From Candidatus Doudnabacteria bacterium (GTDB taxonomy: Bacteria; Patescibacteriota; Doudnabacteria; UBA920; VMFF01): DNA of 64,000 nucleotides. Positions within the stretch are counted from its first letter, which is position 1. Every line of letters starts with the position of its first letter. This document shows positions 17,574-63,669 of this stretch, piece by piece. The stretch spans positions 15,114-79,113 of the forward strand of contig JAQBQP010000001.1 of NCBI GenBank assembly GCA_028286905.1, given 5' to 3'. The notes under the pieces are model-generated. The model ran no database searches. It saw nothing but the letters and a program-made list of their open reading frames with translations, and was not told where the DNA came from. Position numbers and translations under genes: made by a program.

Positions 17574-17600
17574 GGTCGTGCCGAAGCGAAGCGCACGGCC
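17574..17600. repeat. conserved hairpin motif, copy 1 (ggtcgtgc-CGAAGCGAAGC-gcacggcc)
   Basis: Core CGAAGCGAAGCGCACG at 17582..17597, identical to 63651..63666 and split in 62899..62930. Flanking bases pair, with a compensatory difference between copies. Confidence 0.5.
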
Positions 17601-17652
17601 GATAGCACCCCTCGGGAGCAACCCTAATTGTGCATAAGTGGATAACAATAAT

Positions 17653-17680
17653 AAAACCGCTCTATCTGTAGAGCGGTTTT
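17653..17680. terminator. bidirectional terminator between typA and holA
   Basis: aaaaccgctc-tatctgta-gagcggtttt, with T-runs on both strands. Confidence 0.7.
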
Positions 17681-17706
17681 ATTTTGCGCACCATTTACCA
17701 CAACTA

Positions 17707-18723
17707 TTATTTCAGCAGTGCTTCTATAATCATCAACATTTGCAAGTTTGCCGGCCCAGAAGTAGTTTTAACTTCCTGGTCCAACGCCTCGAGCTTTCTC
17801 AACGCTTGTCTTACCGCCAACGCTGAGAAATTTCTACCCAGTTTTTTATAAACAAATAATTTGCCGCTAGCAAAGCCGCTTGCCGCCAACATCTCCGGTT
17901 CGCCCATCCCAGAAGCGGCCAAACCTTGAATTAACAAAATGCTTCTGAACTGTTCCGCCAACAAACCCGATAAGCTAATGATCTTGGCTTTCTCGTCGCC
18001 TGGCAAACGATCGATGTACTCGGTTAGCGCTTTGATTGCCGCTGCTTTATTTTTATCGCCCAGTGCGTTGGTTATCGCAAAAATATTTTCATCCAAATTT
18101 TCAGAAATTAAATCTCTAATATTTTCTTCGGTCAGCGCCGCTGCTTTATCTTCAACCGCGGCACCAACAGCTCCACCGCTAAACGCAGCTAGCTTCCGCA
18201 GTTCAGAATCCACCTGCCACAAAGAATAAGCCGGCGCACCAAACGTTGCTGCCCCTCCTCCAGCAAAACTTGAACCTCCAACAAATCCAATCCGTTCCAA
18301 AAACAAATCAAAGCTTCTGCCGCCAAATTTCAAACCGTATAGATTAGCCCGCGCATCAACCCATTTTCTAAATTCTGCTCCCACCAAAGTATTAAACTCC
18401 AAGACTTTTAGCTTGGGGTGCGCTAAAATCTTTTTTGTTTCGGTTTTACGCTTATCCAATTTTTCTTCAAAGAAAACAATTATATTTAAATTTTTAGAAA
18501 TCTCTTCCAAAACCGCTTCATTCACCAAATTCTTAGAAAAGAAATCGTAACCAAAGATAATCTTTCTGCCCCCAAATAGGTTCGCTTCTGTGGCGGTACG
18601 AGCCAAAGCAGCGATACCATCGGTATCATAAAAGACCGCCGGTTCCAACCGTTCTTTAGCTTCCAGCCCCTTTACATACTCCTTTTTGGAGAAATCGTCG
18701 CTGCCTAATAACAGATATATCAT
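17707..18723 (-). CDS. holA: DNA polymerase III delta subunit
   Basis: 338 aa. N-terminal MIYLLLGSDDF (cf. the HolA start) and a helical C-terminal domain. Confidence 0.55.
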   Translation of the reverse strand: MIYLLLGSDDFSKKEYVKGLEAKERLEPAVFYDTDGIAALARTATEANLFGGRKIIFGYDFFSKNLVNEAVLEEISKNLNIIVFFEEKLDKRKTETKKILAHPKLKVLEFNTLVGAEFRKWVDARANLYGLKFGGRSFDLFLERIGFVGGSSFAGGGAATFGAPAYSLWQVDSELRKLAAFSGGAVGAAVEDKAAALTEENIRDLISENLDENIFAITNALGDKNKAAAIKALTEYIDRLPGDEKAKIISLSGLLAEQFRSILLIQGLAASGMGEPEMLAASGFASGKLFVYKKLGRNFSALAVRQALRKLEALDQEVKTTSGPANLQMLMIIEALLK

Positions 18724-18758
18724 ACCCTTGATTTTAGCATAAAAATGTTATACAAAGC

Positions 18759-18989
18759 ATGACGCTAGTTGAACGACTCCAGGAAGCAGAAATGCTGGCA
18801 ACATTTATGGACTATTACGCTCCACCGCAATGGAGCAAGCGTTTTGCCGAGCTCACGGGAAACCGCGGACGCAACATGATTATCACCCTCGCCCATTGGA
18901 AAGAAGATCTCGAAAAACTGCGCGCCAATGTCAAAGCTGAGGCCGAGGCAATGAGCGCGGAGGATCACACCGAGACCGAAGCCGCCTAA
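18759..18989 (+). CDS. small hypothetical protein, moderately GC-enriched (~52%). The true start may be the internal ATG at 18789, which has an AGGAAG SD.
   Basis: 76-aa ORF, followed by a strong terminator at 19043..19077. Confidence 0.3.
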   Translation: MTLVERLQEAEMLATFMDYYAPPQWSKRFAELTGNRGRNMIITLAHWKEDLEKLRANVKAEAEAMSAEDHTETEAA

Positions 18990-19042
18990 CCTAGAAACTT
19001 CATTCGCAACTACTTTCACCCACTTCACCCGGAAACACCAAC

Positions 19043-19077
19043 AGCCGCTTTCTACCAGAGAGCGGCTGTGTTTTTTA
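19043..19077 (+). terminator. rho-independent terminator
   Basis: cagccgct-ttctaccagag-agcggctg followed by tgtttttt. Confidence 0.65.
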
Positions 19078-19127
19078 CGCTCCAATACTCAGCTCACTTC
19101 TGCCTGTTCGGAACCCTTCGTCAAACC

Positions 19128-19162
19128 AAAAGAATGTACCCCAAGTTTGGGGTACATTCTTT
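19128..19162 (-). terminator. terminator hairpin immediately 3' of tRNA-Lys
   Basis: 16-bp perfect stem aaaagaatgtacccca / tggggtacattctttt. Confidence 0.65.
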
Positions 19163-19238
<76 letters not shown>

Positions 19239-19261
19239 GCAATGCTCGAATGCTGAAATCT

Positions 19262-19338
19262 TGGTGCGCCCGGCAGGGGTCGAACCTGCAACCTTGTGGT
19301 CCGAAGCCACACACTCTATCCAGTTGAGCTACGGGCGC
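19262..19338 (-). tRNA. tRNA-Arg (anticodon UCG)
   Basis: Hand-folded. GCGCCCG acceptor, TGTGG-CTTCGGA-CCACA anticodon arm, GCAGG-TTCGACC-CCTGC T-arm, CCA encoded. Confidence 0.9.
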
Positions 19339-19464
19339 AGAATTCGCTTTACAACGAGGCTTTCGCCAGGTACGCACCTAATCTTAACAAATTAGGCCTA
19401 AAATTTCAACCCCAAACCATCGCTCATAACAAGCTGCCAAATCTCAAACTAACAGCAAACAAAA

Positions 19465-19764
19465 TTAGTGCGCTACTGGGATTGGCACCGGGTTAGAAAA
19501 TGGATCGGCGGCACCTATCGAATCTGGACTAGTTCCGGGGTCATAGGTTTGAGCTTTAGTATATCTTTGGATTGCTTGGTCCATCAGTTTAAAATCTACT
19601 CTGACAATATGTTTTTTTATGCTCTGGCTAACGTTTTTATTGTTCAAATTTAAATACAGCTGATACATTAAAAACACTTCGGCCACAATCAATACGAAGA
19701 AGGCCAAGTTTAAAACCAAGCTCAGCACTGTTCGCCAATTAGTTTTTGGAGGTAAAATTTTCAT
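19465..19764 (-). CDS. small membrane-anchored protein, last gene of the pilus operon (function unknown)
   Basis: 99 aa with a single N-terminal TM. Its start abuts the pilO stop at 19764. Confidence 0.3.
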   Translation of the reverse strand: MKILPPKTNWRTVLSLVLNLAFFVLIVAEVFLMYQLYLNLNNKNVSQSIKKHIVRVDFKLMDQAIQRYTKAQTYDPGTSPDSIGAADPFSNPVPIPVAH

Positions 19765-20306
19765 TAACGATAAATGTAAAAATTGGTCAAGATTGTCATT
19801 GTGGCATTGTTCGGTTGGAAATATAAAACGCTAAATGAAACTACTGGAGAAATAAAAGAACTGTTTTCCAAATACTTCATAAAAGTAACTTCGTTAGGAA
19901 AAGGCCCTTTTAAAACAATGGAGTACGGCACCTGAGATAATCCAGAAGCGCTTTGCACCGATTGCGCTTTGTCAGCAGTACCGCTAACAGTTAGGGTTTC
20001 AGTTAAGTTAGTTTTTTCAGCGTATTGCTCAATTTCTTTAATTTCATTAACTAAATGTAAGTCTGAGGTAAACAGATCGCTTGGCTTGATTGGCAGTGTA
20101 TTAACTTTAGTTAAATCGCCTTGAATGTTCTTAAGCGCTTGAACCTGCTCTTTTAAATCTGCTAGCTGGCTAATCTGATCTTGATGATTATTCTGCATGC
20201 TTATCAAACCTTTAGATAACCGCGGCATCACTAAAGTAAAGATTGCTCCGGTCAAAATAACCCAGATAAGCACTGTTAAGGTAATTTTTTTTGTTGGAGA
20301 CATCAT
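19764..20306 (-). CDS. pilO: type IV pilus assembly protein PilO-like
   Basis: 180 aa. N-terminal TM plus coiled coil, positioned after pilN. Overlaps pilN by 4 nt. Confidence 0.55.
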   Translation of the reverse strand: MMSPTKKITLTVLIWVILTGAIFTLVMPRLSKGLISMQNNHQDQISQLADLKEQVQALKNIQGDLTKVNTLPIKPSDLFTSDLHLVNEIKEIEQYAEKTNLTETLTVSGTADKAQSVQSASGLSQVPYSIVLKGPFPNEVTFMKYLENSSFISPVVSFSVLYFQPNNATMTILTNFYIYR

Positions 20307-20857
20307 AGTTTTAACGCTCCATCCGCTAAGTAGAAAGTAAAGTTAAACAGAACATTGCTGGACTTCTGAAGATTTTCCAAAGGCAAATTTATATTTTTAA
20401 ATAATGGCGAGCCGTCTATATTTGAACGTAGCTGCAATACCGCATCGCGAGTTAAACCAACGCCTAAAATATCAATCTTTCCAGATTTAGTGTTTGCGTT
20501 GAATGAAGTTATTACGACTTCTTTCGGTACAAGTTTTGAAAAGCCAATTAAAACTTTTGACCAGTTTGGATTATTTGCTGCAAAATTTATGTAGTCAGTA
20601 TTGGTATTGTTGGTTTTTTGAACTTCTTTGCGAATCGTGTCGTTGTCTTGACGGTCAATTAACGCTTGGTTCTTTTTAATATCAATATCGACGTTGTCTA
20701 AGGTGCTTTGCAAATAAAATCTCCAGCCAATTAAAACCACGATCACTATCGCATAGCTGACTACAGAGGCAATCAAAAACCTCAGCAAGCCGCCATAAAG
20801 CTTTTCTTGCTGCAACACCTTCTGTTCAGATGGGGGAAGTAAGTTAATTAATTTCAT
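20303..20857 (-). CDS. pilN: type IV pilus assembly protein PilN
   Basis: 184 aa. Hallmark N-terminus MKLINLLPP followed by a TM helix. Confidence 0.7.
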   Translation of the reverse strand: MKLINLLPPSEQKVLQQEKLYGGLLRFLIASVVSYAIVIVVLIGWRFYLQSTLDNVDIDIKKNQALIDRQDNDTIRKEVQKTNNTNTDYINFAANNPNWSKVLIGFSKLVPKEVVITSFNANTKSGKIDILGVGLTRDAVLQLRSNIDGSPLFKNINLPLENLQKSSNVLFNFTFYLADGALKL

Positions 20858-21930
20858 TAGTTTACGATTTCTCCGGCATGCATTGCCAACCCAATAGCGG
20901 TGGTGTAACTTAACGAATCCTCGCGCGACAAAGGCGCGCTGACCTTATCTTGGGGATTAAAAACATTTATCCAAGGGTTGCCTAAGGTAATATCAATATG
21001 GTCTAGGTCAGCAAGCTGTTGGTACAAATAACTGGTTAAGTGCAAAAGCTTTGAGGTCCCACCGCACAAAACGATTTGGCTAATCTTTTCTGGATTGTGC
21101 TCATCATGGAATTTGATTATGTTTCTAATTTCCATGACAAGATTATCCACTACGCTAATCAATGCGGCTTTAACGCTCTGGTGTTCTTTCGTATCATCTA
21201 AACCAATCTCTCTTTTTATTGTTTCTGCTTCCTCATCAGTAACGCCCATCGCCCGAGCGATGCTTTGAGTAAAGGCATCCCCTGCGATTGGCACAGTAGA
21301 AGTAAATTGTAGGTTTCCCTTTTCCACCACTACCAAACTGCTACGCAAAGTATCCATGTCTAAAATTAGAACATTTTTAGCACGCATTTCTGCAGAAATT
21401 AAGGCGCGCGTACATGCCGCGGATTCAACCTCAAAAGAGACCGGACGGAAACCAACTGCCTTAAATATTCTCAAAAGAGTGTCAATATAATCTTTAGGCG
21501 CGGCCGTAACTAGCACATCTAATTTTTCATCGCGCTCGCCAATAATTTGCCAATCTAAATACGCCTGGTCCAGTGGAATTGGAATGTATTGCTCGGCTTC
21601 AAAAGGAACCGCGTTCACCGCCTGCTCCTCGCTCATTTTTGGAATCTGCAAAACTCGCACAAAGGCTTTTGATTCTGGTATCGATGCCACAATTTGGTTG
21701 CCGCGCAATTTGCCAAAATTAACATGCTGCAGCATCGCTTTAAGGTGGTTGGTCAGTAAGTCTTCATTTACAATATTATCATTAACAACAACCCCTTTGG
21801 GCAAAGGGTAATCGGAGTAAGCGACAATTTTGTAACTCTTCCCTTTTTTCTGCAGCTGCATTACCTTTATTGATAAATCGCTGAGGTCCAAGCCAAAAGG
21901 AATCTTTTTTTGTTTCCAAATATCAAACAT
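20857..21930 (-). CDS. pilM: type IV pilus assembly protein PilM (actin-like ATPase fold)
   Basis: 357 aa, FtsA/PilM-like. Operon position is directly upstream of pilN, sharing the ATGA overlap. Confidence 0.75.
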   Translation of the reverse strand: MFDIWKQKKIPFGLDLSDLSIKVMQLQKKGKSYKIVAYSDYPLPKGVVVNDNIVNEDLLTNHLKAMLQHVNFGKLRGNQIVASIPESKAFVRVLQIPKMSEEQAVNAVPFEAEQYIPIPLDQAYLDWQIIGERDEKLDVLVTAAPKDYIDTLLRIFKAVGFRPVSFEVESAACTRALISAEMRAKNVLILDMDTLRSSLVVVEKGNLQFTSTVPIAGDAFTQSIARAMGVTDEEAETIKREIGLDDTKEHQSVKAALISVVDNLVMEIRNIIKFHDEHNPEKISQIVLCGGTSKLLHLTSYLYQQLADLDHIDITLGNPWINVFNPQDKVSAPLSREDSLSYTTAIGLAMHAGEIVN

Positions 21931-21948
21931 ATAAATTTATTGTAGCAT

Positions 21949-23160: not shown

Positions 23161-23173
23161 AACGAAGGATTTT

Positions 23174-24913: not shown

Positions 24914-24994
24914 TTTTGTTTTAGTTTCAGAAAACTGCTATTTTTTAGCGAATTTATAAACTGATTATAGCATATTTTTGCCAAATTTCAAAAA

Positions 24995-25267
24995 TTATTT
25001 CTTGAGTTTTTTAAGTTTAGGACTTTCTTGGTATCCTACCTGGTCTTCTCGAATTTTTAAAGCATTCCGTTCTGCAAAAGTTGCTAATTTTTCGTCTAAA
25101 TAACTTTTTGTGACCACATGGGTCATTTGAGACTCCAATTTATTAAGCCTTCTTTCGATCTGTTCAAAGCGTAAATCCGCGCTTGCTGAGAAATTATTAA
25201 TTGATATTAGAATCTTATCTAACATTGCATACACTTTTTTGAACTCTTTCTTCGTTTCGATATTCAT
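24995..25267 (-). CDS. hypothetical coiled-coil protein
   Basis: 90-aa ORF. No recognisable domain. Confidence 0.25.
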   Translation of the reverse strand: MNIETKKEFKKVYAMLDKILISINNFSASADLRFEQIERRLNKLESQMTHVVTKSYLDEKLATFAERNALKIREDQVGYQESPKLKKLKK

Positions 25268-31339: not shown

Positions 31340-31386
31340 AGATCAATTTTGCTTCAAAATATTAACACAGCGGTGCGCTTTTGTCT

Positions 31387-31417
31387 AAACTAAAACCGGC
31401 CTGAGCCGGTTTTAGTT
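31387..31417. terminator. perfect palindromic hairpin (ctaaaaccggc-ctga-gccggttttag)
   Basis: Read from the sequence. Flanked by an A-run and a T-run. Confidence 0.5.
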
Positions 31418-31451
31418 TGTAGCAACTATTCAGTTTTAAAAGTTCTTCTTC

Positions 31452-31601
31452 TTATTCTTCTGAAGAAGAAGAACTACTGTTTGATCTACGTTTGGATCTA
31501 GCCAAACCGCCTAGTTTCCCTGCTCGAGCGTGTCCTGCAGAGTCGCCCTTCCAACCACGACCCTTTGCTCCTTGGGAACTATTATTTCCATTATTTGCCA
31601 T
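31452..31601 (-). CDS. small KGG-repeat (stress-induced acidophilic repeat motif, YciG/GsiB-like) protein, 49 aa
   Basis: MANNGNNSSQGAKGRGWKGDSAGHARAGKLGGLARSKRRSNSSSSSSEE. GGAGGTG SD lies 7 nt upstream. Below the 60-aa cutoff of the ORF track. The 3' end overlaps a palindrome at 31441..31475. Confidence 0.45.
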   Translation of the reverse strand: MANNGNNSSQGAKGRGWKGDSAGHARAGKLGGLARSKRRSNSSSSSSEE

Positions 31602-31635
31602 AAAACTCACCTCCCACAAAACTTTTACTTATTAG

Positions 31636-31744
31636 TGCGCTAATCCATTGAATCTGAATCATAATTGCTATCCGTACCGGACGCATTTCTTTGACTTGAT
31701 TGATCCGATGATGATTGGTCGGATCGGCTTCTGTTATCTTGCAT
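31636..31744 (-). CDS. candidate 36-aa Ser/Asp/Gln-rich peptide with a strong SD
   Basis: ggaggtttcATG start context. Translates to MQDNRSRSDQSSSDQSSQRNASGTDSNYDSDSMD. Confidence 0.2.
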
Positions 31745-31857
31745 GAAACCTCCATTGGTCTTTGATAAGACCTTAATTACTTACATAATGATTGTATCTT
31801 TTAGGTATTTTAAAACAATTGGAATATCAAACAAAAAACACCGCTTTCGCGGGGTTC

Positions 31858-31885
31858 TGTTTTGTGGGTCGATATTAGTGATCGG
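31858..31885 (-). terminator. probable terminator of the tRNA-Pro transcript
   Basis: ccccgcgaaagcggtg hairpin, followed in minus orientation by tgttttttgtttg. Confidence 0.4.
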
Positions 31886-31956
31886 CGTGGCCGCTCGCCT
31901 GCTGGCGAGCTATGCACTCCCTATGAGAACGTCATCTTCGATGACATAAGTTATAG

Positions 31957-33489: not shown

Positions 33490-33505
33490 TTAGTTTGATG
33501 TTAGA

Positions 33506-33682
33506 TTACTTAACTTTTCCAACTAGGCGACCTCTGTAATAGCCGCATTTCTTGCAGACTTCATGTGGTCTAACTGGACCTCCGCAGTTTTTACAAACTG
33601 CTAAAGATTTTTCAACTAGATGATGATGTGAACGTCTCTGATTTCTACCTGATCTGGTTTTGTGCTTTTTTGGTACACCCAT
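33506..33682 (-). CDS. rpmF: 50S ribosomal protein L32
   Basis: 58 aa, hand-translated: MGVPKKHKTRSGRNQRRSHHHLVEKSLAVCKNCGGPVRPHEVCKKCGYYRGRLVGKVK. CxxC...CxxC zinc ribbon. Not in the ORF track. Confidence 0.8.
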   Translation of the reverse strand: MGVPKKHKTRSGRNQRRSHHHLVEKSLAVCKNCGGPVRPHEVCKKCGYYRGRLVGKVK

Positions 33683-34175
33683 GGTTTTATTGATTTAATA
33701 TACAGGGTTAATTTTAAAATAAAACCGCCGAAATGTCAACGTAGCCCAATCGATCTAATTATTCCCCTTCCCTTCTAACTCTTATACTTTTTATAGCTTA
33801 AATATAAATTAAAAAAGATTCGTACTAAGAGCCTAGTAAATATAGCTCCGTACAAATCTTTTGGGCTGCCCCCAAACCGCATAAAGCGAGCTTAGGAGCC
33901 ATGGGTATTTTTGTTTGATTTAGGAGTGTACAGGAAATTGGTGGAAATGTCAAGGCTATAGGCGAACAGTGAATTATTTTACCTGCCCAATTCAGACAAA
34001 TTTTGTTTATAAAAAGAAAGACGCCCACCCTGACTAGAAGTCGGGGCGGGCGTTGATCAGCACTGGGCTGATCGGGCTCTCATGAATCATCCTACGCGGG
34101 ATCCCTGCAACGCGCGCGAGTGCGCATGTGTGAGCTTCCCTCCGAGTCGGTCGCGATGCGCGCGACCGATGATGA

Positions 34176-34505
34176 GGTAGACGGAAACGGCTTTGCGGGC
34201 CGTCTCAGAAGAAACCGTGGGACGACGACGCGCCGCGGAGCTACGAGGCTTCGGAGCTGTTCGCGGCGCGCGAGCCGGTGGCGACCGAGGTCGACGACGA
34301 GCCGATGATGCCGCGCGAGGTGAAGGTCATGGAATTACAGGACACTCTCCGGGTGCTGCGTCCGTGTCGGTCGATGGCTTTGGCCGGCGCGTGGGAACGG
34401 TTCATGATGGTTTCCTCCATGGAATGGTCATCAGAGCTTAGACGGTTTGTCCTTGCTCGACGGTCTCACACCTCATTGAGATGTGTTATCGTTTCGACAT
34501 CATAG
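34176..34505 (+). pseudogene. probable decayed gene remnant inside a 68% GC insert (no start codon or SD; possible frameshift near 34200)
   Basis: The frame with near-100% GC3 is open for ~110 codons (…ASELFAAREPVATEVDDEPMMPREVKVMELQDTLRVLRP…) but lacks an initiation signal. An upstream GC3-rich frame (34120..) is offset by one. An antisense 55-codon ORF with SD shares the same third positions. Confidence 0.25.
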
Positions 34506-34556
34506 CACATCCATAGAAAAAGTCAAGCACTTTACCTAAATTCAACAAAAAACCGC

Positions 34557-34582
34557 TTAAATAAGCGGTTTTCCCATATATA
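34557..34582. terminator. bidirectional terminator downstream of groEL
   Basis: aaaaaaccgctt-aaat-aagcggtttt. Confidence 0.7.
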
Positions 34583-34623
34583 TTCACAATAAGTTTCAGG
34601 TATAGGACGGACCTTAGTACTAA

Positions 34624-36595: not shown

Positions 36596-36772
36596 ATTGT
36601 CCTAATTAAATTAATTAATCGCCTGGCTATTTGGGCCGAGTTTATACTCCATTTTAGCACATTCCCTCAGACATAGGTCAACTTGCATTTTTCCAATGGT
36701 TATGCGATTATGGCCTATGTTCGCAGTACTGTTTTCCCAAACACCTGCGCAAGTGCAGGAGGAAAAGAACAG

Positions 36773-37093
36773 ATGCCGCCAAGGACTGCAAGGGCACGCC
36801 GCGTTCACTTCGAAAAGATCGGACACTCCCGATCGGGTCCGAACTACGCCGGCTGGGTGATCGGCGCAGCATTGCTGCTGCTGGTATTCTTCGCAATGCG
36901 GACCGCGGGCGCCAACAACGAAGCCAAGATCAAGGCAGCGGCTGCGCACGCCGATTCGATTCGGGTGGCGGACTCCACCGCGAAGGCAGTGGCTGCCGAC
37001 TCCGTCAAGAAGGTCGATTCGACCGCCAAGGCCAACGCTGCAGCCAAGCAGCAGGCCAAGCCGACGAAGCACGCCGCCAAGAAGCGCCGCTAG
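36773..37093 (+). CDS. small membrane-anchored Ala/Lys-rich protein encoded in a high-GC island
   Basis: 106 aa from ATG 36773 (GGAGG SD lies 10 nt upstream). The track's TTG start at 36683 is unlikely. One TM (WVIGAALLLLVFFAM), then AKAAAA/KK-rich tail. GC about 63%. Confidence 0.45.
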   Translation: MPPRTARARRVHFEKIGHSRSGPNYAGWVIGAALLLLVFFAMRTAGANNEAKIKAAAAHADSIRVADSTAKAVAADSVKKVDSTAKANAAAKQQAKPTKHAAKKRR

Positions 37094-37118
37094 TGGCTGT
37101 TCAATCAACGTACAACGC

Positions 37119-39067: not shown

Positions 39068-39979
39068 TCACTTCTGGCAATTCGTGCAGAAGGTGCTGGT
39101 ACGACTGCCAATCTTTTGGGCATGCAGCGGCTTGCCGCATCTTGGACAAGGTTTTCCTTCTTTAGCGTAAACCAAATGTTGATCGGAAAATTTTCCAGCA
39201 GTGCCGTTAGTCATCAAAAAACTTTCAATCGATGATCCACCCAACTTAATCGCTTCCTGCAAAACTTTCTGAATTGATTGTAATAACAATTTTTGCTGAT
39301 CCGGCTTTAGGCTACCAACTTTTCTTAATGGACTAATTTTAGATATAAATAATGATTCGTCAGCATATATATTGCCAATTCCGGCAATCACTTCTTGATT
39401 CAGCAGAAAATCTTTGGCGCGCTTTGAAGAATGCCTTTTTATAATTTCTGAAAATTCTTTGAGCTTCAAAGTAAGCGGTTCAGGACCGAGCTTTTGTTGA
39501 CTTAAAACATTTTTCATTTCCTTGTCAGTTACAAAGCGAATATGTCCGAATTGTCGGGTATCATTATAAAATAGCTTATCGCCATTGCTAAATATAAACT
39601 CGACATGGGTATGCTTGCTTGGCAGTGTTTGCTTTATTGCAGTCTTTGCTAAAGAAAGGGTCAATGGGTTTTTTAAGACTTTTTTCGGTAAAAATATTAG
39701 CTGCCCGGACATTCGTAAATGAATCATTAAATTACCGCCACCCGATAATCGAATAATTAAATACTTTGCGCGACGATCTAAGCCTAAAACTCTTTTGTTT
39801 TTTAGCAGAGCCGCGAAGTTCCGCGAAGATTTTTTTGATCCAATTTTAAGGTTTGAAATTTTTGCCGGACCAACCTTAATCATCTTATCCATATATACAA
39901 AAACTTCTTTGATCTGCTTCGATTTCAAAGATTTTTGCAATTGTCTTTTAACTGTTTCAACTTCTGGTAGTTCCGGCAT
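39068..39979 (-). CDS. mutM: formamidopyrimidine-DNA glycosylase
   Basis: 303 aa. N-terminal MPELPEVE, H2TH region, C-terminal zinc finger CPRCG...CTNCQ. Confidence 0.85.
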   Translation of the reverse strand: MPELPEVETVKRQLQKSLKSKQIKEVFVYMDKMIKVGPAKISNLKIGSKKSSRNFAALLKNKRVLGLDRRAKYLIIRLSGGGNLMIHLRMSGQLIFLPKKVLKNPLTLSLAKTAIKQTLPSKHTHVEFIFSNGDKLFYNDTRQFGHIRFVTDKEMKNVLSQQKLGPEPLTLKLKEFSEIIKRHSSKRAKDFLLNQEVIAGIGNIYADESLFISKISPLRKVGSLKPDQQKLLLQSIQKVLQEAIKLGGSSIESFLMTNGTAGKFSDQHLVYAKEGKPCPRCGKPLHAQKIGSRTSTFCTNCQK

Positions 39980-52066: not shown

Positions 52067-52828
52067 TTAGTGCTTGATGCGGAGGTGCAGGGTGAACGGA
52101 CAGGTGCCGACACCGACGATCCGAACTCCATGAACCTCGTCAGATTCCAACGTGCCCCACGGTGACTCGCCCCAACTGATTTTGTTGGAGCTGAGGAATG
52201 TGATGTCGTGGAAGATCGTATCGCCCGGCGCACGTACAGTCGTGATCTGGGTTCCCCCGTAGGTTCCCGAAACATTCCGGGCCGTGAACGAGCCAGACTT
52301 GCTCTGGGCGTACAAGGTGTTGCCGAGGATCACATTTGGATTCGGGCTCATCCAGGCGGTATCGTTTGGAATAACGATGTCCGCACAACTGAAGTCACCG
52401 GAGTTCAAACGGAGCGTCGTACTCACCGTCGTGGTAACCACCGGGTTCGAGGATCGGGGATCGCCGGTCGCGGTGATCAAATAGGTAATGATCGACGGCG
52501 TGTTCAAGTTGAAGTCCGCCGGCGGAGCATTTGCCTGATTGACGACGATGCTGTCACAGCCGAAGACCTTCACGGAAATCGGCAGACTAGCGTCCCGACC
52601 CAGAGCATTAGACGGTGTCCGGTCAACCTTGCAGCTGAGGGCATTAGATGCCGCCAGCAGAATGGTCGTAGTCCGGTTCAGCGTCTCGAACTTCGGGGGT
52701 GGCGGAATGACGCCGAGCGTGGGGCTAGCAGGTGGAATGGGGTTCCCGGGCTGGGTAGTTTCGCCTCCCCCTCCACAAGAAACCACCAAGAGCGCTGAAG
52801 CCGCCATGGTGCAAAAAGACTTTCTCAT
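52067..52828 (-). CDS. lipoprotein, hypothetical, encoded in a high-GC island
   Basis: 253 aa from ATG 52828 (AAGGAGGG SD lies 4 nt upstream; the track's start at 52861 lacks an SD). Signal MRKSFCTMAASALLVVSC with lipobox. GC about 57%. The plus-strand ORFs 52208..52798 and others are antisense shadows. Confidence 0.5.
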   Translation of the reverse strand: MRKSFCTMAASALLVVSCGGGGETTQPGNPIPPASPTLGVIPPPPKFETLNRTTTILLAASNALSCKVDRTPSNALGRDASLPISVKVFGCDSIVVNQANAPPADFNLNTPSIITYLITATGDPRSSNPVVTTTVSTTLRLNSGDFSCADIVIPNDTAWMSPNPNVILGNTLYAQSKSGSFTARNVSGTYGGTQITTVRAPGDTIFHDITFLSSNKISWGESPWGTLESDEVHGVRIVGVGTCPFTLHLRIKH

Positions 52829-52998
52829 ACAGCCCTCCTTGGTGGCTGAAGTGTATCGCATTTACGGATCTGTGTATTTAGACCGCGTCGTACCTTATAT
52901 ATACGGTATTTGGCAGTAAATGTCAAGGGGCTGTTTATACAAATGCTGAGAAAGGATGTTACCTTTCCCCTTTTAAAACCGTAATATACACTATAAGC

Positions 52999-55619: not shown

Positions 55620-55683
55620 ACTTTTATCTTTATTTCTTATTAACTTTTGTGTGATCTAATTATATCACAAAAGCCGGGTCAAT

Positions 55684-56301: not shown

Positions 56302-56315
56302 ATTTTTAAACTTAG

Positions 56316-57098: not shown

Positions 57099-57099
57099 T

Positions 57100-57555
57100 T
57101 TACTTTTTTTTCTTAATTACGTAACTAACGACCACCTTAACATCTTTAGCTTCTTTTAAGATAACTATATTGACATCGTTAACATCGCTTGTGGCATAGA
57201 TATTGGAAATAGGCAAAGCGTACTTTTTGGTCAAAATTAAATACCCAGCTTTACTTACATAATTCAAGTAGTAATCATAAAGTTCTTTTGGAGTTTGCTG
57301 AGAAAGAATTGTGGTAGTATTGTTCTCAACTTTATCGATATTACTAACCTTACTATCTACTAACGTACCATCCTTCGGCATTAAAGCTGTAGGAAAATCA
57401 GCGGTTAACTTTACTGGCTCAGGGGTTGTATTTTGTGTTTCAGTGTTATTTGCAGCAGGGCTCGTATTCGGACGTGTTTTATAGTAGATTCCGCCAGCTG
57501 CGGCTACTAATATAAATAGCACTATCGGAATAACAATCTTTAAGATTTTACTCAT
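57100..57555 (-). CDS. membrane-anchored hypothetical protein (paralog of 55155..55619)
   Basis: 151 aa, N-terminal TM. Confidence 0.35.
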   Translation of the reverse strand: MSKILKIVIPIVLFILVAAAGGIYYKTRPNTSPAANNTETQNTTPEPVKLTADFPTALMPKDGTLVDSKVSNIDKVENNTTTILSQQTPKELYDYYLNYVSKAGYLILTKKYALPISNIYATSDVNDVNIVILKEAKDVKVVVSYVIKKKK

Positions 57556-57651
57556 TTTATTTTATACGATTATTGTTTTCTATATTATACACTTAAACCT
57601 TGGTTTAACAAAAATCGTCCTATATATTAGGACGATTTTGTTAAGATCAAT

Positions 57652-60357
57652 TTAACCGCACTTTGAGAAACCGCAAGATTCGCATTTCATGCATCCCTCA
57701 GCCATTCTTAGCATCGAGCCACATTCCTGACAAATCGGCACATGCCCAAAATCCGCAACTGACATTTTTCTAGTTTCTGGAACGGTGTTCCCTGTTGCCG
57801 CAGCAACCGGTTCACTGACCTTTATTTTCACCTCTTCAGTAATATTTTCTATCGGTGCTGTTTCTTTAAAGTTCAGCTGCAAACTCTGTTGTTTGCGATT
57901 AATATGTTTTTCCAAAGTCTTAGCAACTCCATCAGGTAGCGAGTAAATTATTTCACCCTGATTAAAAGATACTTCGGTACTGCGGATGCCTTTTAACTGA
58001 GAAATTATTTCATCTACTGAAACGCCGGAACGCAAACCCAATGAAATCATTCGGCACAGTCCTTCGGTTTGAGCAGCAAAGAATCCACCGGATTTTCCTA
58101 ATGTTGCAAATACTTCAAACGGCCCGTGCTCGTCCTCATTGATAGTTACAAACAAATGCCCATAGGTCGTGTTCAGTTTGTAAGTAGTCCCATTCATTTC
58201 TGTTGGACGGTCTCTTGGCACTACTTCATATTTGTGTCCGTTTTGGATTAGCTTTTTTACGATAAATTTATTATTGCCTACATGCAAAAGATCTTCACTC
58301 TTTTCTTCGGTCTTTTCTGCATTAGCCGCACTGTTTGACTGCACAACCGCAGCCGCAATAAGTGCGTCATTCTTATCAGAATCAATCTGCATCTGTTCAG
58401 CAACTTCTTTGCCTAAGCTTTTCTTGTCTGTAGCTAAAATTTGCTCGTCACGGGAACCATCACGATAAATCGTGCCGCCCTTGCAACCTAAGTCATACAT
58501 CAGCTGATAAAGTTTTTCAGTATCTTCTACTGTGTAATTTGAAGGGGCATTACAAGTTTTAGAAATTGCCGAGTCAGTCCAGCGTTGAACTGCAGCTTGA
58601 ACCTTAACATGGTCTTCTGGGGCTAAATCCATTGCAGTAGCAAAGTATTCAGGCAGGTCCTGTCCTTGATGCGCGTCCAACCAATCCTGAGCAAGTTTAA
58701 TCTTCTCTTCGTGGACGCCTAAACGAGATTTGCGGAAATAGCTCCAAGAGAAGAATGGTTCAATTCCAGTAGAAGTTCCAACCATTGTGCCGATCGTTCC
58801 GGTTGGTGCCTGAGTCATAATTGTAACGTTACGAATGCCGTATTGGCGAACCATGCTGCGAATATATTCTGGCATGGTCTTCATGAAGCCGCTCTCCAAA
58901 AACTTTTCAGCATCAAACTGGGAGAAGGCGCCTTTTTCACGCGCAAGCTCTACGGAAGTTTCGTAAGCAGTGACCGCGATAAATTGGTAAAGTTTATCAA
59001 TAAATTTTACGCCTTCTTCACTACCGTATCTGATTCCTAAACGCACAAGCATTTCTGCCAAACCAATCGTGCCCATGCCTACTCTGCGTTCAGACATCTG
59101 CTGTTTAAAGTTCTCATCAAAGAAATAAGGAGTAGCGTCAATAACGTTATCCTGGAAACGAACAGCATACTGCACTGTTTCTTTTAACTTATTCCAATCG
59201 ACATCCTGTCCAAGCAAATGTTTAGAAAGGTTAACGTGGCCAAGATTACAAACGCCCCAAGCAGGCAAAGGCTGCTCACCGCAAGGGTTTGTACATGGCA
59301 AGGAAGCATAGTAATGCGAATTAGACATGTCATTAGCACGGTCGATGAAATACATACCTGGTTCAGCAGAAGACCATGCTGATGAAATAATCTGATTCCA
59401 AACATCTCTCGCCATCACTGTTTTGTGTTTGATTATTTTTCCGCCAAGTTTTTTCCAAGCTCTAATATCCCCTTGAGTATTTGCCCATTCAGTCTTATAT
59501 AAAGGATCGGAGGTATCTGGAAAAACTAAATCCCAAGCTAAATCATTCTTTACGGCATGCATGAAGTCATCAGTGATGCCAACAGAAATATTCGCGTTAG
59601 TAATCTTACCGGCTTCTCTCTTAGCATTTATAAAATCCAAAATATCCGGATGCCAAGCGTTCAAGATCAACATCAAAGCACCGCGGCGAGAGCCACCTTG
59701 TTCTATTAATCCTGTAACGAAGCTGTACAGCGAAGCCCAAGAAACAGATCCAGAGGAGCGTCCGTTAACACCTTTAACGTAAGCATAACGTGGACGCAAA
59801 GTAGAAACGTTAATACCTACACCGCCGCCGCGAGACATTATTTCCGCCATCTGACGAAGAGTGTCAAAAATTCCACCACGAGAATCTTCTGGACATGGAA
59901 TTACATAACAGTTGTAGAAAGTTAAATTCTGGCCGGTGCCTGCACCAGTAAAAATTCTACCTGCTGGTACATATTTCCAGTCATCCATAAGCTCTCGAAA
60001 TTTGCCGTTCCATTCATTCTGTTTTTCTGGAGTTTTTTCAACGCTAGAAATATGCTGAGCGATACGATCAAACATTTGTTCTGGAACTGTCTCCAGCGGT
60101 TTGTCGACATGTTCTAAAGAACGAGTCTCTACTGAACCATCGCGAAGCGTTACCTCAACCTGTTTGGTATTTGAATCAAAAGACTTAACAGTGCCAATTT
60201 CTCTCTGTCCGGTTTTCAAATTTACACAAACAACAACTGTATCCCCTTCGGTTAAAGTTTCTTTTTTTGCATCTTTAACAGCGTAACGATCTAAAAAGAT
60301 CTTTTCTCCTAGGTCGGATAAGGCATTAGTTGTTCTGGTTTGTAAGTTTTCGCTCAT
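57652..60357 (-). CDS. nrdJ: class II adenosylcobalamin-dependent ribonucleotide reductase
   Basis: 901 aa. RNR barrel motifs and C-terminal zinc-ribbon cysteines CQECG...CMKCESCG. Confidence 0.85.
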   Translation of the reverse strand: MSENLQTRTTNALSDLGEKIFLDRYAVKDAKKETLTEGDTVVVCVNLKTGQREIGTVKSFDSNTKQVEVTLRDGSVETRSLEHVDKPLETVPEQMFDRIAQHISSVEKTPEKQNEWNGKFRELMDDWKYVPAGRIFTGAGTGQNLTFYNCYVIPCPEDSRGGIFDTLRQMAEIMSRGGGVGINVSTLRPRYAYVKGVNGRSSGSVSWASLYSFVTGLIEQGGSRRGALMLILNAWHPDILDFINAKREAGKITNANISVGITDDFMHAVKNDLAWDLVFPDTSDPLYKTEWANTQGDIRAWKKLGGKIIKHKTVMARDVWNQIISSAWSSAEPGMYFIDRANDMSNSHYYASLPCTNPCGEQPLPAWGVCNLGHVNLSKHLLGQDVDWNKLKETVQYAVRFQDNVIDATPYFFDENFKQQMSERRVGMGTIGLAEMLVRLGIRYGSEEGVKFIDKLYQFIAVTAYETSVELAREKGAFSQFDAEKFLESGFMKTMPEYIRSMVRQYGIRNVTIMTQAPTGTIGTMVGTSTGIEPFFSWSYFRKSRLGVHEEKIKLAQDWLDAHQGQDLPEYFATAMDLAPEDHVKVQAAVQRWTDSAISKTCNAPSNYTVEDTEKLYQLMYDLGCKGGTIYRDGSRDEQILATDKKSLGKEVAEQMQIDSDKNDALIAAAVVQSNSAANAEKTEEKSEDLLHVGNNKFIVKKLIQNGHKYEVVPRDRPTEMNGTTYKLNTTYGHLFVTINEDEHGPFEVFATLGKSGGFFAAQTEGLCRMISLGLRSGVSVDEIISQLKGIRSTEVSFNQGEIIYSLPDGVAKTLEKHINRKQQSLQLNFKETAPIENITEEVKIKVSEPVAAATGNTVPETRKMSVADFGHVPICQECGSMLRMAEGCMKCESCGFSKCG

Positions 60358-60392
60358 AATTTTAGTAATAGTTAGTTATTTTAGTTTTAGCC

Positions 60393-60836
60393 CTAGAGTT
60401 TCTGTAATTCTGCTTTGAACTCTTCAATGTCTTCGAAACATTTATATACTGATGCGAATCGGACGTATGCGACCTTATCAACCTTTTTCACTTTTTTCAT
60501 AACGATCTCGCCAATTTGAGGGCTGCTTATTTCAGGACTGGCTGTTTTCTGTATTTCTTGTTCAATCTGCGATATTAGCTTCTTAAAGCTTTCCTCTGTA
60601 ATTGGCCGCTTCTCAAAGGCCTTCCTAATTCCTCTTTCCATCTTATCTCGCGAGTAAAGTTCTTTGACTCCATTCCGTTTCACTACGGTTAGGTCTAAAA
60701 TTTCCATTTCCTCATACGTAGAGAAGCGGAAACTGCACGAAACGCACTCCCTTCTGCGCCGAATTGCTACTCCTTCCCCAGCGACACGGGAATCAATGAC
60801 TTTAGTATCTTCATGATTACAATTTACGCAACGCAT
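60393..60836 (-). CDS. nrdR: transcriptional repressor NrdR
   Basis: 147 aa. Zinc ribbon MRCVNCNHEDTKVIDSR plus ATP-cone. Confidence 0.9.
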   Translation of the reverse strand: MRCVNCNHEDTKVIDSRVAGEGVAIRRRRECVSCSFRFSTYEEMEILDLTVVKRNGVKELYSRDKMERGIRKAFEKRPITEESFKKLISQIEQEIQKTASPEISSPQIGEIVMKKVKKVDKVAYVRFASVYKCFEDIEEFKAELQKL

Positions 60837-60954
60837 AGAGTTTATTCTTAATTTTTTTGGCTAAATTTGAGCTGAACAAATAAGCGTTTTCGCCTATAAA
60901 ATAGACTAGAACTTGGATAAAACCTTTGCGAACATTTTTTTTGATATTTGTTTC

Positions 60955-61002
60955 GGACACTAGATGTAGTGTTCTTGTACTTATCTTATCACTATAGGTT
61001 GT
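60955..61002. promoter_or_regulatory. tandem NrdR boxes upstream of nrdR-nrdJ
   Basis: Box 1 ACACTAGATGTAGTGT (60955..60970, perfect palindrome ends). Box 2 TCACTATAGGTTGTGG (60987..61002). Start-to-start spacing is 32 bp, matching the canonical two-box NrdR operator. Confidence 0.6.
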
Positions 61003-61149
61003 GGTACGCAAATAAAAACAAAACCCGCAATTTCCTTAATAAATTAGCGGGTCAAGTTTTTTATCCGGTTTTCGTTCACCTATTTATCCACAAAATTGTT
61101 GCTAGTGCGCTCAAGCAAATTTAATCTAAAATTCTGATATACTTTAGCT

Positions 61150-62025
61150 ATGAAAATTGCCCTATTTACCGGAGGCTTAACCGAAGAACGCCCTGTTTCA
61201 ATAGCCTCTGCCACTAACGTAAACAAATTACTGGACTTTGCTGACACAGAGACCTTTGTAATGCCTGAAGACCTAGAAAAGTTCGTAGCCACTCACAAGA
61301 GCTTTGACTTCGCTATACCCATTATTCATGGTAAAGGCGGAGAAGACGGCGTGATCCAAGGGTTATTTGAATCCTTAAGCATTCCGTATTTATTTTCTGG
61401 GGTCCAAGCCAGCTCGATTGCAATTGATAAAAAAAGAACCAAGCAAATTGCTAAGGCACTTGGATATACTGTTACGAAAGAAAGTTCAGTTGAAAACTCC
61501 TCCTTTCCTCTCTTTGCCAAACCGCGGTTTGGCGGTTCCTCGGTAGCTTCCGGGCTTTGTAAGTCTCAAGCAGACTTAGATAACTTAAAAAAGTTGTGCT
61601 CAGACCCATTTATTTTAGAGCAGCCTCTGAAAGGACGCGAGTTTACAGTAGGAGTAATCGAACAGAATGGGAAAACAATAGCCTTACCTGTTATAGAAAT
61701 TATAACTCCTGAAAATTCATTCTTTGATTTCGAACATAAATACGACCCAAATAACCTCGCGGGCGAAATATGCCCGGCGCAGATCCCCATTGAACTTAAC
61801 TCGGCGCTTCAAGCCGAGGCTTTAGCGATCCATACAGAAATCGGCGCGCGACACATCTCTCGTTCCGATTTTATTGTTACCAATACTAATGAAATATTTT
61901 TCCTCGAAATAAACACTATTCCAGGCATGACCAACACCTCCTTAATCCCTAAGATGGTCGCTGCCGCAGGTTTAAATCTTCGTGATTTATTAAAACAGTG
62001 GGCCAACGAGGCGCTGTCAAATTAA
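61150..62025 (+). CDS. ddl: D-alanine--D-alanine ligase
   Basis: 291 aa, ATP-grasp. N-terminal MKIALFTGG...ERPVSIAS pattern of Ddl. Confidence 0.75.
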   Translation: MKIALFTGGLTEERPVSIASATNVNKLLDFADTETFVMPEDLEKFVATHKSFDFAIPIIHGKGGEDGVIQGLFESLSIPYLFSGVQASSIAIDKKRTKQIAKALGYTVTKESSVENSSFPLFAKPRFGGSSVASGLCKSQADLDNLKKLCSDPFILEQPLKGREFTVGVIEQNGKTIALPVIEIITPENSFFDFEHKYDPNNLAGEICPAQIPIELNSALQAEALAIHTEIGARHISRSDFIVTNTNEIFFLEINTIPGMTNTSLIPKMVAAAGLNLRDLLKQWANEALSN

Positions 62026-62063
62026 CCATAGCAATTCCCATTAGCATTTATTAAAATTCTGCT

Positions 62064-62825
62064 ATGGAAGGACCATCTCTGTTTCTGGCAGTAGAGCAGC
62101 TAATGCCTTTCAAGGGCAAAACCATTTTATCTGTCTCTGGAAACACAAAAATTGGCAAAGAAAGATTAGACCACAAGAAGGTGCTGGATATTTTTTCATG
62201 GTCGAAGCAATTACTTTTTCAATTTGATGACTTTGCATTGCGGACACATTTTTTATTGTATGGAAGCTTTGAGGCCACTGTTGAAGGAAAATCTGTTACT
62301 GGTGATTATAAAAGAACTCGCGACCCCCGATTAACTCTGAACTTTGAAAATGGTCAGCTGAAAATGTACGCTTGTTCGGTTAAGTACGTTGAGGACTCAA
62401 ACCTAAAACGGATTTATGATTTCACTGCAGATGTAATGTCCCCTACCTGGGATGAAAAAGCAGCGCTAAAGAAAATAAAGAATTGCTCGGAAGAACAAAT
62501 AGCCGACGTCTTGATGAATCAAGATATCTTTGGCGGAGTAGGAAATATTATAAAAAACGAAGTTTTATTTATTCACAGAACAAATCCCAGGCAGCTGGTT
62601 AAAGATACTCCGGCAAAGAAAATAAAAGAGATTGCAACAGAAGCTCGAAACTTCTCACATCAATTTTATGAATGGAGAAAAGTATTTCAACTTAAAGCGA
62701 ACTTACAAATTTACAGAAAAAGCATTTGCCCGATCTGTGGCGGAAAAGTAAAACGCGAAAAAATTGGCAAGGGCCAACGAATGAGTTTTTACTGTCCTGT
62801 TGATCAACCGTTTACGACTAAATAA
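62064..62825 (+). CDS. nei: Fpg/Nei-family DNA glycosylase (endonuclease VIII-like)
   Basis: 253 aa. N-terminal MEGP, H2TH (DIFGGVGNIIKNEVLF), C-terminal zinc finger CPICG...CPVDQ. Confidence 0.65.
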   Translation: MEGPSLFLAVEQLMPFKGKTILSVSGNTKIGKERLDHKKVLDIFSWSKQLLFQFDDFALRTHFLLYGSFEATVEGKSVTGDYKRTRDPRLTLNFENGQLKMYACSVKYVEDSNLKRIYDFTADVMSPTWDEKAALKKIKNCSEEQIADVLMNQDIFGGVGNIIKNEVLFIHRTNPRQLVKDTPAKKIKEIATEARNFSHQFYEWRKVFQLKANLQIYRKSICPICGGKVKREKIGKGQRMSFYCPVDQPFTTK

Positions 62826-62856
62826 AAAAACTTACTCTGGAAGAGTAAGTTTTTTT
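62824..62856. terminator. bidirectional terminator
   Basis: aaaaaaa-cttactct-gga-agagtaag-ttttttt. Confidence 0.7.
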
Positions 62857-62898
62857 AACTTCTTTGGCTAGTTGCCGAAGGCAATAGCCTAGTGTTAT

Positions 62899-62930
62899 GT
62901 CGAAGCTTGCACGAAGTGCAAGCGCACGAC
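62899..62930. repeat. conserved hairpin motif, copy 2 (split by an inserted stem-loop)
   Basis: gtCGAAGC-[ttgcac-gaa-gtgcaa]-GCGCACGac. Same flanks as copies 1 and 3, with an internal 8-bp hairpin inserted in the loop. Confidence 0.45.
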
Positions 62931-63056
62931 CTTTCGCTGCAATTTTTTATTTAGTTGTGCTCACGATTTTTGGCTTACGTTTGACCGCACCCTCTCTATG
63001 GCGATTCGCATCGCGACCCTGCACCCTCCGCTGTTCACGCCTAACTCTAGGCAATA

Positions 63057-63464
63057 TTATTTTATCTGGATTACAACGTACTCAGGATTCTGAGTAGTTG
63101 CTCCAAGCACAGCTCCATCTTGCGAAGGAATTGCATATTCTGCAACTGACTGGTTTGGATTAAGCGCTGTGTATCTCGGTTGACCATACTGATAATCAGA
63201 CAGTCCTAAGAACGCAACGACTTGTGGCTTCACAACTTCAGCAGCGCTTGCAACAGACCATTGTAGGTTGTCTGCAATAACCGCAAAAGTATTATCTAAC
63301 TGCGGAGAAATATTTTGCGCAGCAAAAATGTCTGGCAAAGATTTCTCTGTTCCGCTAAAAGAAGCATTGCTGTATGCGACCCCAAACAGGAACATGTTTA
63401 CTATAAGAGCAAACGCAAGTAAAGGCACCACGACATGTGGTTTGTCATCTAAGTGTTCTGGCAT
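63057..63464 (-). CDS. membrane-anchored hypothetical protein
   Basis: 135-aa ORF, one N-terminal TM. Confidence 0.3.
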   Translation of the reverse strand: MPEHLDDKPHVVVPLLAFALIVNMFLFGVAYSNASFSGTEKSLPDIFAAQNISPQLDNTFAVIADNLQWSVASAAEVVKPQVVAFLGLSDYQYGQPRYTALNPNQSVAEYAIPSQDGAVLGATTQNPEYVVIQIK

Positions 63465-63645
63465 ATTTTTTTGTTTTTTTGTTTTATTTTTGTTTCGTGC
63501 CTTTTATTTACTAGATCTCTATAAACAAAAGGCTGTCGGTAATCGACCAATTAAAAACTCTAATGTATTTATTAGAGTTTTTAACATTACATATCTATTA
63601 TAGCAGAAATTTTTGCTTTTGTCTAGCCCCCCAAAAAGTGAGAGA

Positions 63646-63669
63646 GCGATCGAAGCGAAGCGCACGATC
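63646..63669. repeat. conserved hairpin motif, copy 3
   Basis: gcgatCGAAGCGAAGCGCACGatc. Core is identical to copy 1 (17582..17597). Confidence 0.5.

Follow-up and report, generated by a model that had tools for sequence, protein, structure and literature searches.

Repetitive extragenic palindromic (REP) sequences are bulged imperfect palindromes of 20–40 nt, GC-rich relative to their genome, that lie outside genes, typically at gene 3′ ends with the stop codon on one side and a terminator or promoter on the other, and have a species- or lineage-specific presence. The described systems, with REPs, their inverted doublets (REPIN) and the REP-associated tyrosine transposases (RAYT), are those of Proteobacteria; in the literature we searched, neither REP-like repeats nor RAYTs are described for Patescibacteria. 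Here we examine a short hairpin motif found in three copies in a 64,000-nt stretch of a metagenome-assembled genome of Candidatus Doudnabacteria (Patescibacteria, of the candidate phyla radiation (CPR)), a host of about 41% GC. This whole stretch, chromosomal and of 40.8% GC, is called the window, and coordinates are window positions. The Nei protein encoded in it is 100% identical to a Doudnabacteria protein, and its TypA finds its best matches in Patescibacteria. We read the three copies as a small family of non-coding, GC-rich, imperfect-palindrome REP-like hairpin repeats, 22–40 nt long, in the gene-end spacers of Doudnabacteria and related Patescibacteria, a reading to which we give roughly even chances.

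Three copies of one hairpin

The copies are as follows.

17574..17602, plus strand, copy 1: hairpin GGTCGTGC-CGAAGCGAAGC-GCACGGCC(GA), core at 17582–17597
62899..62930, plus strand, copy 2: GTCG / AA / GCTTGCAC-GAA-GTGCAAGC / GCA / CGAC
63648..63669, plus strand, copy 3: GATCG / AA / GCG-AAG-CGC / A / CGATC, core at 63651–63666

The exact 16-mer CGAAGCGAAGCGCACG occurs in the window at the two core positions of copies 1 and 3, both on the plus strand, and allowing up to two mismatches adds no further window match (chance expectation from shuffles, 0.04). The gapped pattern CGAAGC-N(0–25)-AGCGCACG adds 62901–62928 on the plus strand, with a spacer of N12; the pattern matches in none of 100 shuffles. 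Covariance model R1 rests on copies 1 and 3 together with three homologues found elsewhere, with copy 2 left out. Run unfiltered, it recovers only the places of the three copies in the window, scoring 42.7 bits for copy 1 and 40.9 bits for copy 3, and it finds copy 2 with the frame intact and 17 nt inserted into the apical loop, at 14.2 bits and an E-value of about 0.1. Similarity from copy to copy ends after 16–29 nt, so we are dealing with a short unit and not with the tip of a longer repeat. The initial annotation of this DNA had reported three copies of a 16-nt core and had held them not to be a chance repeat. Both statements stand, the second on the strength of the shuffles and of units recurring in another lineage (see below).

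RNA and DNA energy parameters agree on a single two-tier architecture for all three copies. The outer stem always closes in CG/CG, followed by an AA bulge and an apical GC-GAA-GC (or GCG-AAG-CGC) mini-hairpin; besides the AA bulge, one to three bases are unpaired (A or GCA). The complementary flanks vary, being GC/GC in copy 1, GAT/ATC in copy 3 and GT/AC in copy 2, and those of copy 1 can be extended to GGTCGTGC/GCACGGCC with one G-T pair. Copy 2 has an apex 6 bp longer, an 8-bp GCTTGCAC-GAA-GTGCAAGC stem-loop, the inner hairpin at 62905–62923, amounting to a 12-nt insertion; that an 8-bp hairpin had been inserted there with the frame kept was recognized in the initial annotation and is borne out. 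The heptamer GCGAAGC is present at 17586 in copy 1 and at 63655 in copy 3, and copy 2 has CACGAAGTG instead.

The flanks had also been described as differing between copies in a compensatory way. This covariation, which we judged by inspection (MAFFT places copy 2 in another register), is real but small, with 2–3 pairs per copy. Copy 1 can adopt an alternative register, TCG.GCCG / AA / GCG-AAG-CGC / A / CGGC-CGA, and since the invariant core pairs differently in its two registers, conservation is mainly of sequence and not only of structure. Compared with shuffles, copies 1 and 3 have folds that are only moderately more stable, with z from −1 to −2.6, and folding programs give similar stability for both strands. 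We found no larger structured RNA around the copies, the 199-nt spacer between nei and ORF135 folding no better than shuffles (z −1.8 and −1.0); the typA 3′ region reached z −4.35, largely from its terminator. The motif has no match in Rfam, which at gathering threshold yields only five tRNAs in the window and, at E-values up to 10 around the copies, only terminator-driven noise.

Near-identical units in a second lineage

A search of the genome collection with the bare 16-mer gave at least 120 matches, and those listed are chance matches in unrelated, mostly GC-rich genomes. A scan of viral contigs gave 55 matches, nearly all in GC-rich DNA and none with a hairpin-forming flank or a low-GC intergenic context. 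A metagenome scan with YCGAAGCGAAGCGCACGRYC returned 117 loci, 106 of them GC-rich chance matches and 11 in low-GC DNA. Clear homologues among these 11 are L191, L182 and L212, with one copy each and all from assembly JABXNS01. They have GAGAGGTTGTGCCGAAGCGAAGCGCACGGCCRGKCTA in common (33–37 nt, 97% identity); copy 1 matches L191 and L212 over 28–29 nt at 96% and L182 exactly over 23 nt. The JABXNS01 copies lie 3–4 nt past the stop of an opposite-strand gene, namely parB in L182, uvrB in L212 and a 209-aa open reading frame (ORF) in L191, and fold into hairpins of about 40 nt, overlapping the TAG stop with their 3′ arm. L182 belongs to Patescibacteria; the named matches of its GlyA are to Patescibacteria and Doudnabacteria, at 76–81%. 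Sequence comparison places near-identical units at unrelated loci in this second Patescibacteria lineage.

Filled and empty sites in relatives

Contigs of relatives were obtained through TypA homologues: L056 (93% identity), L057 (92%), L058 (85%) and L060 (82%). In the alignment of the spacer between typA and holA, the stop codon in L056 and L060 leads straight into the conserved terminator, where the window has an additional segment.

17549..17654, plus strand, lineage-specific segment of ~105 nt holding copy 1, from the typA stop to the shared terminator; absent in L056 and L060

At the copy 1 site, L057 has an unrelated insert of ~220 nt that does not contain the motif. There was no copy on any contig of L056, L057, L058 or L060, and the ~140 kb of DNA from Patescibacteria relatives taken together contain none by 3-mismatch search or by unfiltered R1. 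The Nei homologues available for comparing the sites of copies 2 and 3 were not syntenic.

The second comparison comes from L182. Its relatives L302 and L303 (90–91% GlyA identity) share the gene order glyA-PAP2-tRNA-Leu-...-parB and do not carry the unit. In these relatives the parB stop TAA adjoins a conserved TTGAC −35 box, and L182 has 32–43 extra nt that are the hairpin. The two independent filled-versus-empty comparisons thus agree, and the aligned spacers, with empty sites in close relatives, show a hairpin gained or lost within a short evolutionary time. Conservation in relatives, by which the initial annotation proposed to judge the motif, is absent at orthologous positions and present for the family as such.

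Both loci show further differences. Within the L057 insert (4421–4650 of that contig) are a T-arm and acceptor 3′ end resembling those of a tRNA, CTCGGGAGTTCAAGTCTCCTTACCTCCA, an inverted repeat of 15 bp, GGTCACGGTTTGCCA, and a promoter-like TTGACT-17-TATAAT. A tRNA remnant in the copy 1 segment was considered and rejected, as ARAGORN finds none there or in the L057 insert. Between tRNA-Leu and parB, an ORF of LAGLIDADG_3 type is found in L302 (12085–12585), L303 (12042–12584) and L304 (12138–12827); in L182 (4312–4334) tRNA-Leu is followed directly by parB without this ORF, a further difference in presence and absence.

Position at gene ends

Copy 1 is 26 nt past the typA stop and 50 nt before the bidirectional terminator common to the convergent holA. 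Copy 2 is 74 nt past the nei stop, beyond the nei terminator, in the spacer toward the convergent ORF 63057–63464, and copy 3 is 20 nt from the stop of minus-strand ORF 63689–63976. The distance of roughly 30–80 nt from a gene end given in the initial annotation was about right. All three copies are intergenic; copies 2 and 3, 750 bp from each other, stand in direct orientation on either side of one small ORF without a database homologue, and copy 1 is separated from them by 45 kb. The neighboring signals are these.

17650..17683, both strands, bidirectional intrinsic terminator of typA (plus) and holA (minus), kept in relatives and outside the repeat
62823..62857, both strands, bidirectional intrinsic terminator directly 3′ of nei, outside the repeat
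63597..63625, minus strand, strong sigma-70-like promoter TAGACA-17-TGnTATAAT with 11 of 12 matches, 21 nt downstream of copy 3

None of the three copies has a U-tract behind it, and terminator scans list nothing at the motif; each locus has a canonical terminator of its own, and the copies do not fit that class. At copy 3 the order of stop codon, repeat and −35 box is that of L182, and −35-like boxes are likewise placed in L191 and L212.

The copies do not all face the same way with respect to the transcription units beside them, copy 1 being opposite relative to typA. In the four unambiguous cases (copy 3, L191, L182 and L212) the motif as written is antisense to the upstream gene. The minus strand has 50 of the 61 window ORFs; the plus strand is C-rich, with a GC skew of −0.075. 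All three window copies are on this C-rich strand; the GC-skew signs of the JABXNS01 contigs are mixed, so there is no consistent strand. Neither the orientation trend nor the GC-skew trend is significant at so few copies.

An AT-rich perfect hairpin, AAAAACTCTAAT...ATTAGAGTTTTT, occurs at 63556–63585, past the predicted minus-strand promoter and upstream of ORF 63057–63464; from its position 3′ of that promoter, it would fall in the 5′ leader of this ORF, where it might be a terminator or an attenuator. The window has two genes of the Fpg/Nei glycosylase family, at 39068–39979 and 62064–62825, and the latter, the nei beside copy 2, matches Pfam in its H2TH domain only.

Related hairpins

Neither the mismatch search nor R1 adds to the earlier list of copies; two hairpins related to parts of the motif, H1 and H2, were not on it.

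62866..62889, plus strand, H1: GGCTA-G-TTGCC-GAA-GGCAA-TAGCC, 9 nt upstream of copy 2
14201..14220, minus strand, H2: GGTT(G)TGCC-GAA-GGCAAACC

Both contain CCGAAGG. The inner hairpin of H1, TTGCCGAAGGCAA, nearly equals the part added in copy 2, TTGCACGAAGTGCAA, and the window contains no further convincing copy of either word. Comparison of these neighbors shows that the apex can be enlarged by a hairpin matching one next to it.

H2 and the 5′ arm of the JABXNS01 unit have 13 nt in common, GGTTGTGCCGAAG. Together with the downstream AAAGAGGAAATG, H2 is homologous to an L057 hairpin, GGTTTAC-GAA-GTAAACC, followed by an identical 12-mer; the L057 homologue is at a different locus and has compensatory changes in its stem. 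Next to it in L057 comes GTCG-CGAGCATAGCGAG-CGAC, a weak R1 match, and this tandem resembles H1 with copy 2. H2 is probably a distant relative of the motif family. It lies within a segment of ~129 nt bracketed by a 16-nt direct repeat, ATGGGGTGCCCGAAGG (14154–14169 and 14298–14313), which duplicates the 3′ end of tRNA-His (14299–14372, minus strand). The segment has its own terminator besides H2, is absent in L057 and L060, and has the look of a scar left when DNA integrated at the 3′ end of the tRNA. In the genomes compared, short GAA-capped hairpins are seen to recur in lineage-specific spacer DNA.

A structured element in Acinetobacter plasmids

Seven of the low-GC metagenome loci contain a ~440-nt element of 60% GC with many compensatory changes, in which the 20-mer TCGAAGCGAAGCGCACGACC forms an invariant block. 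We considered these loci as CPR plasmids and rejected the idea, because BLAST against PLSDB shows them to be Acinetobacter plasmids, with 22 Acinetobacter records in which the element, unannotated, lies upstream of an operon of the type IV coupling protein (T4CP) gene and mobC. L194 resembles this element too. Homology of the plasmid 20-mer with the window motif was rejected as unproven, given the chance rate and an element rich in GCGAAGC.

The element deserves note for its own sake. At L262 5150–5600 (NZ_CP127895.1 10819–11215; also L290, L221 and L266) it spans ~440 nt at 60% GC against a background of 38%, in Rep_3 plasmids and beside iterons. Four sequences support 20 covarying pairs; there are 5–7 GCGAAGC words and no Rfam match at permissive E-value. 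Candidate identities are a large structured RNA not described before and a structure of single-stranded DNA (ssDNA) that is related to transfer.

Interpretation and alternatives

A short, GC-rich, bulged palindrome that is extragenic at gene ends, conserved in sequence, found at unrelated sites in two lineages, missing from the corresponding sites of relatives and occasionally nested is what a dispersed REP-like repeat would look like. Its lineage-variable sites speak against a conserved cis-regulatory RNA, the missing U-tract against a terminator and the lack of a match against any Rfam family. The unit would have been copied into new spacers as DNA. The likeliest route may be a single-stranded hairpin intermediate that an enzyme of the host or of a mobile element recognizes, much as RAYT transposases recognize REPs; the unit could instead have spread from hairpin to hairpin by template switching or gene conversion. 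Once inserted, a unit would be transcribed within a 3′ untranslated region (UTR), where the most its stem-loop might do is passively impede 3′ exonucleases or serve as a spacer; it would not be a specific regulatory RNA. Among the functions offered for the motif in the initial annotation, then, a small REP-like repeat fits, and a conserved functional RNA is unsupported, with orthologous sites empty, Rfam silent and orientation mixed.

Several observations weigh against a REP-like family. Classical REPs number in the hundreds, and the count seen here is low, with three copies in the 64-kb window, one per JABXNS01 contig and none in the ~140 kb of relatives. We saw no inverted doublets of the REPIN type or of bacterial interspersed mosaic elements (BIME), the window copies all being on the plus strand, and no target-site duplication at either pair of empty and filled sites (typA–holA and parB). 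Pfam searches of 58 window ORFs turned up genes of ordinary housekeeping, of type IV pili and of competence, and neither a transposase (Y1/HUH or other) nor an integrase; a tblastn probe with an IS200 TnpA, a weak test, had no match in ~250 kb of Patescibacteria DNA. The copy 1 segment is ~105 nt long and the repeat only 27 nt, so that the gain may belong to a larger indel. Finally, a perfect 16-nt core in two lineages could reflect selection for a sequence-specific binding site.

That last point leads to a selected, cis-acting stem-loop of the 3′ UTR, either a target of a protein or RNase or a stabilizer of mRNA 3′ ends, with a protein reading the core. Such an RNA would account for a core kept identical in two lineages despite variable flanks, for copies that lie just past stop codons and upstream of terminators or promoters, for the shared antisense orientation of copy 3 and the three JABXNS01 copies, and for the frame of copy 2 surviving a 12-nt insertion. 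We nonetheless consider it unlikely, because the hairpin is not retained at orthologous sites in 90–93% relatives, which would be unusual for an element attached to typA or parB. Copy 1 is moreover reversed relative to typA, the genes beside the copies (typA, nei, parB, uvrB and a small membrane ORF) have no function in common, and, besides the lack of an Rfam family, the folds of copies 1 and 3 beat shuffles only moderately. The copies could also be scars or terminal fragments of larger, decayed mobile DNA (att-proximal or end hairpins) that are not mobile themselves. Copy 1 does lie in a lineage-specific segment, at the same spot where L057 has its insert with the tRNA-like T-arm; the H2 segment is bounded by the repeated tRNA-His 3′ end, a classical integrase signature; and copies 2 and 3 surround a small ORF without homologues. 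Yet the extra DNA in L182 is essentially the hairpin alone, similarity between segments is limited to the hairpins, no integrase was found in the window, and copies 2 and 3 differ by a 12-nt insertion, unlike attL and attR cores. This origin is quite improbable in our estimate. A still poorer account is that there is no family, only a chance word plus local duplication with no function or mobility. It can point to there being just three copies, two of them close together, and to an internal GAAGC-GAAGC repeat that makes slippage products plausible. It is hard to square with the failure of shuffles to match the gapped pattern, with copy 1 lying 45 kb away, and above all with units of 27–37 nt recurring on three contigs of another lineage, and we regard it as highly improbable.

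The hairpin might instead function as ssDNA, its GCGAAGC apex serving as a recognition or nicking site for an HUH enzyme, a primase or the like, with the Acinetobacter 20-mer a site of the same kind. GCGAAGC, CCGAAGG and C-GAA-G triloops cap copies 1–3, H1 and H2. Hairpins of the d(GCGAAGC) type are far more stable as DNA than as RNA, and they occur naturally at the priming sites of phage G4 and RSF1010 ssiA and at N4 promoters (PMC13037366). The 20-mer, for its part, is invariant in a covarying element upstream of T4CP-mobC. Against this, about one chance match to the 20-mer pattern is expected in low-GC metagenome DNA by our estimate, so the plasmid match is probably coincidence or convergence, and the core of the plasmid element is predicted to engage in long-range pairing and not in a local hairpin. 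The strand of the motif is inconsistent with GC skew across contigs, window Pfam scans and the weak IS200 probe found no HUH gene nearby, and folding programs give the two strands similar stability. A functional ssDNA hairpin is, on balance, very unlikely; the extra-stable GCGAAGC apex keeps an ssDNA mechanism plausible, as something we would infer only. Just as unlikely is a more sweeping version, in which Patescibacteria including Doudnabacteria would carry undescribed mobile mini-hairpins of ~30 nt, inserted with precision into the gap that separates a stop codon from the promoter or terminator after it, capable of nesting, and moved by an enzyme as ssDNA hairpins with GNA triloops, the same recognition module appearing in the transfer-proximal element of Acinetobacter.

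CPR/Patescibacteria genomes are small and tightly packed, and a hairpin that differs between 90–93% relatives would be a handy marker of recent genome change. The repeat would hint at some hairpin-mobilizing activity in these uncultured organisms. As a practical caution, the motif should not be annotated as a conserved regulatory RNA. Its wider significance is limited unless whole-genome counts reveal a large, active family.

Other features of the window

A word at 2461–2475 had been listed as related to the motif, in the terminator of a supposed GH1 gene. Neither part holds up. The word shares only CGAAGCGC, which occurs five times in the window, with the motif, and is part of a terminator stem:

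2449..2480, minus strand, ordinary intrinsic terminator of ORF 2504–3919, its stem containing CGAAGCGC; not a member of the family

Of the ORFs there, 1087–2391 encodes a type I phosphodiesterase and the minus-strand ORF 2504–3919 has no Pfam match. The latter, with ORFs 10440–10928, 36611–37108 and 52067–52861, is markedly GC-richer than the remainder of the window; all four are without Pfam match and may be foreign or lineage-specific genes.

Two spacers stand out. Between groEL and nusB, about 1.1 kb (33490–34623) has no long ORF, and ~400 nt of it (34016–34413) is at roughly 65% GC; we found no Rfam match in this gap at E-values up to 0.1. From tRNA-Gly to tRNA-Pro, about 600 nt (31340–31956) has no ORF longer than 68 aa, with GC-rich patches at 31507–31578 and 31866–31934 and no Rfam match.

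Comparison with known systems

Readings of the motif as a K-turn, a CsrA-type or TRAP-type site, a CRISPR repeat, attC, dif or a DNA uptake sequence (DUS) were tried and rejected, since the defining sequence features of each are absent. DUS and uptake signal sequences (USS) moreover occur about once per kb in both orientations, against three copies in 64 kb on one strand here. Intrinsic terminators are alike in being GC-rich stem-loops 3′ of genes and unlike in their U-tract, which the copies do not have.

Miniature inverted-repeat transposable elements (MITEs) and short repeats such as Correia/NEMIS, RPE, BOX and ERIC are 100–200 nt or more in length, with terminal inverted repeats, which in MITE-type elements enclose 50–500 bp of shared sequence, and target-site duplications, whereas the units described here share 16–37 nt and show no duplication. 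They are alike in being non-autonomous, intergenic and present or absent between relatives, and they too can adjoin or overlap stop codons, as the 3′ arm of the JABXNS01 units does over TAG. The d(GCGAAGC)/d(GCGAAAGC) mini-hairpin DNA of Hirao and co-workers is a physico-chemical motif and not a genetic element. Its exact heptamer is at the apex of copies 1 and 3, and copy 2, H1 and H2 have the C-GAA-G variant; its natural sites are ssDNA priming or promoter sites in phages and plasmids, while those described here are chromosomal.

The closest likeness is to the REP/REPIN–RAYT systems. The differences are the few copies seen, against tens to hundreds per genome, the missing inverted doublets, the lack in the window of a RAYT gene, which in the known systems usually has REPs on both sides, the Patescibacteria host, and the conserved 5′ GTAG tetranucleotide, which here precedes copy 1 only. 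The resemblance extends to length, the bulged hairpin, GC-richness, conservation of both sequence and structure, lineage-specific presence, and extragenic sites at gene ends, where the three window copies and the three JABXNS01 copies all lie 3–74 nt from a stop codon.

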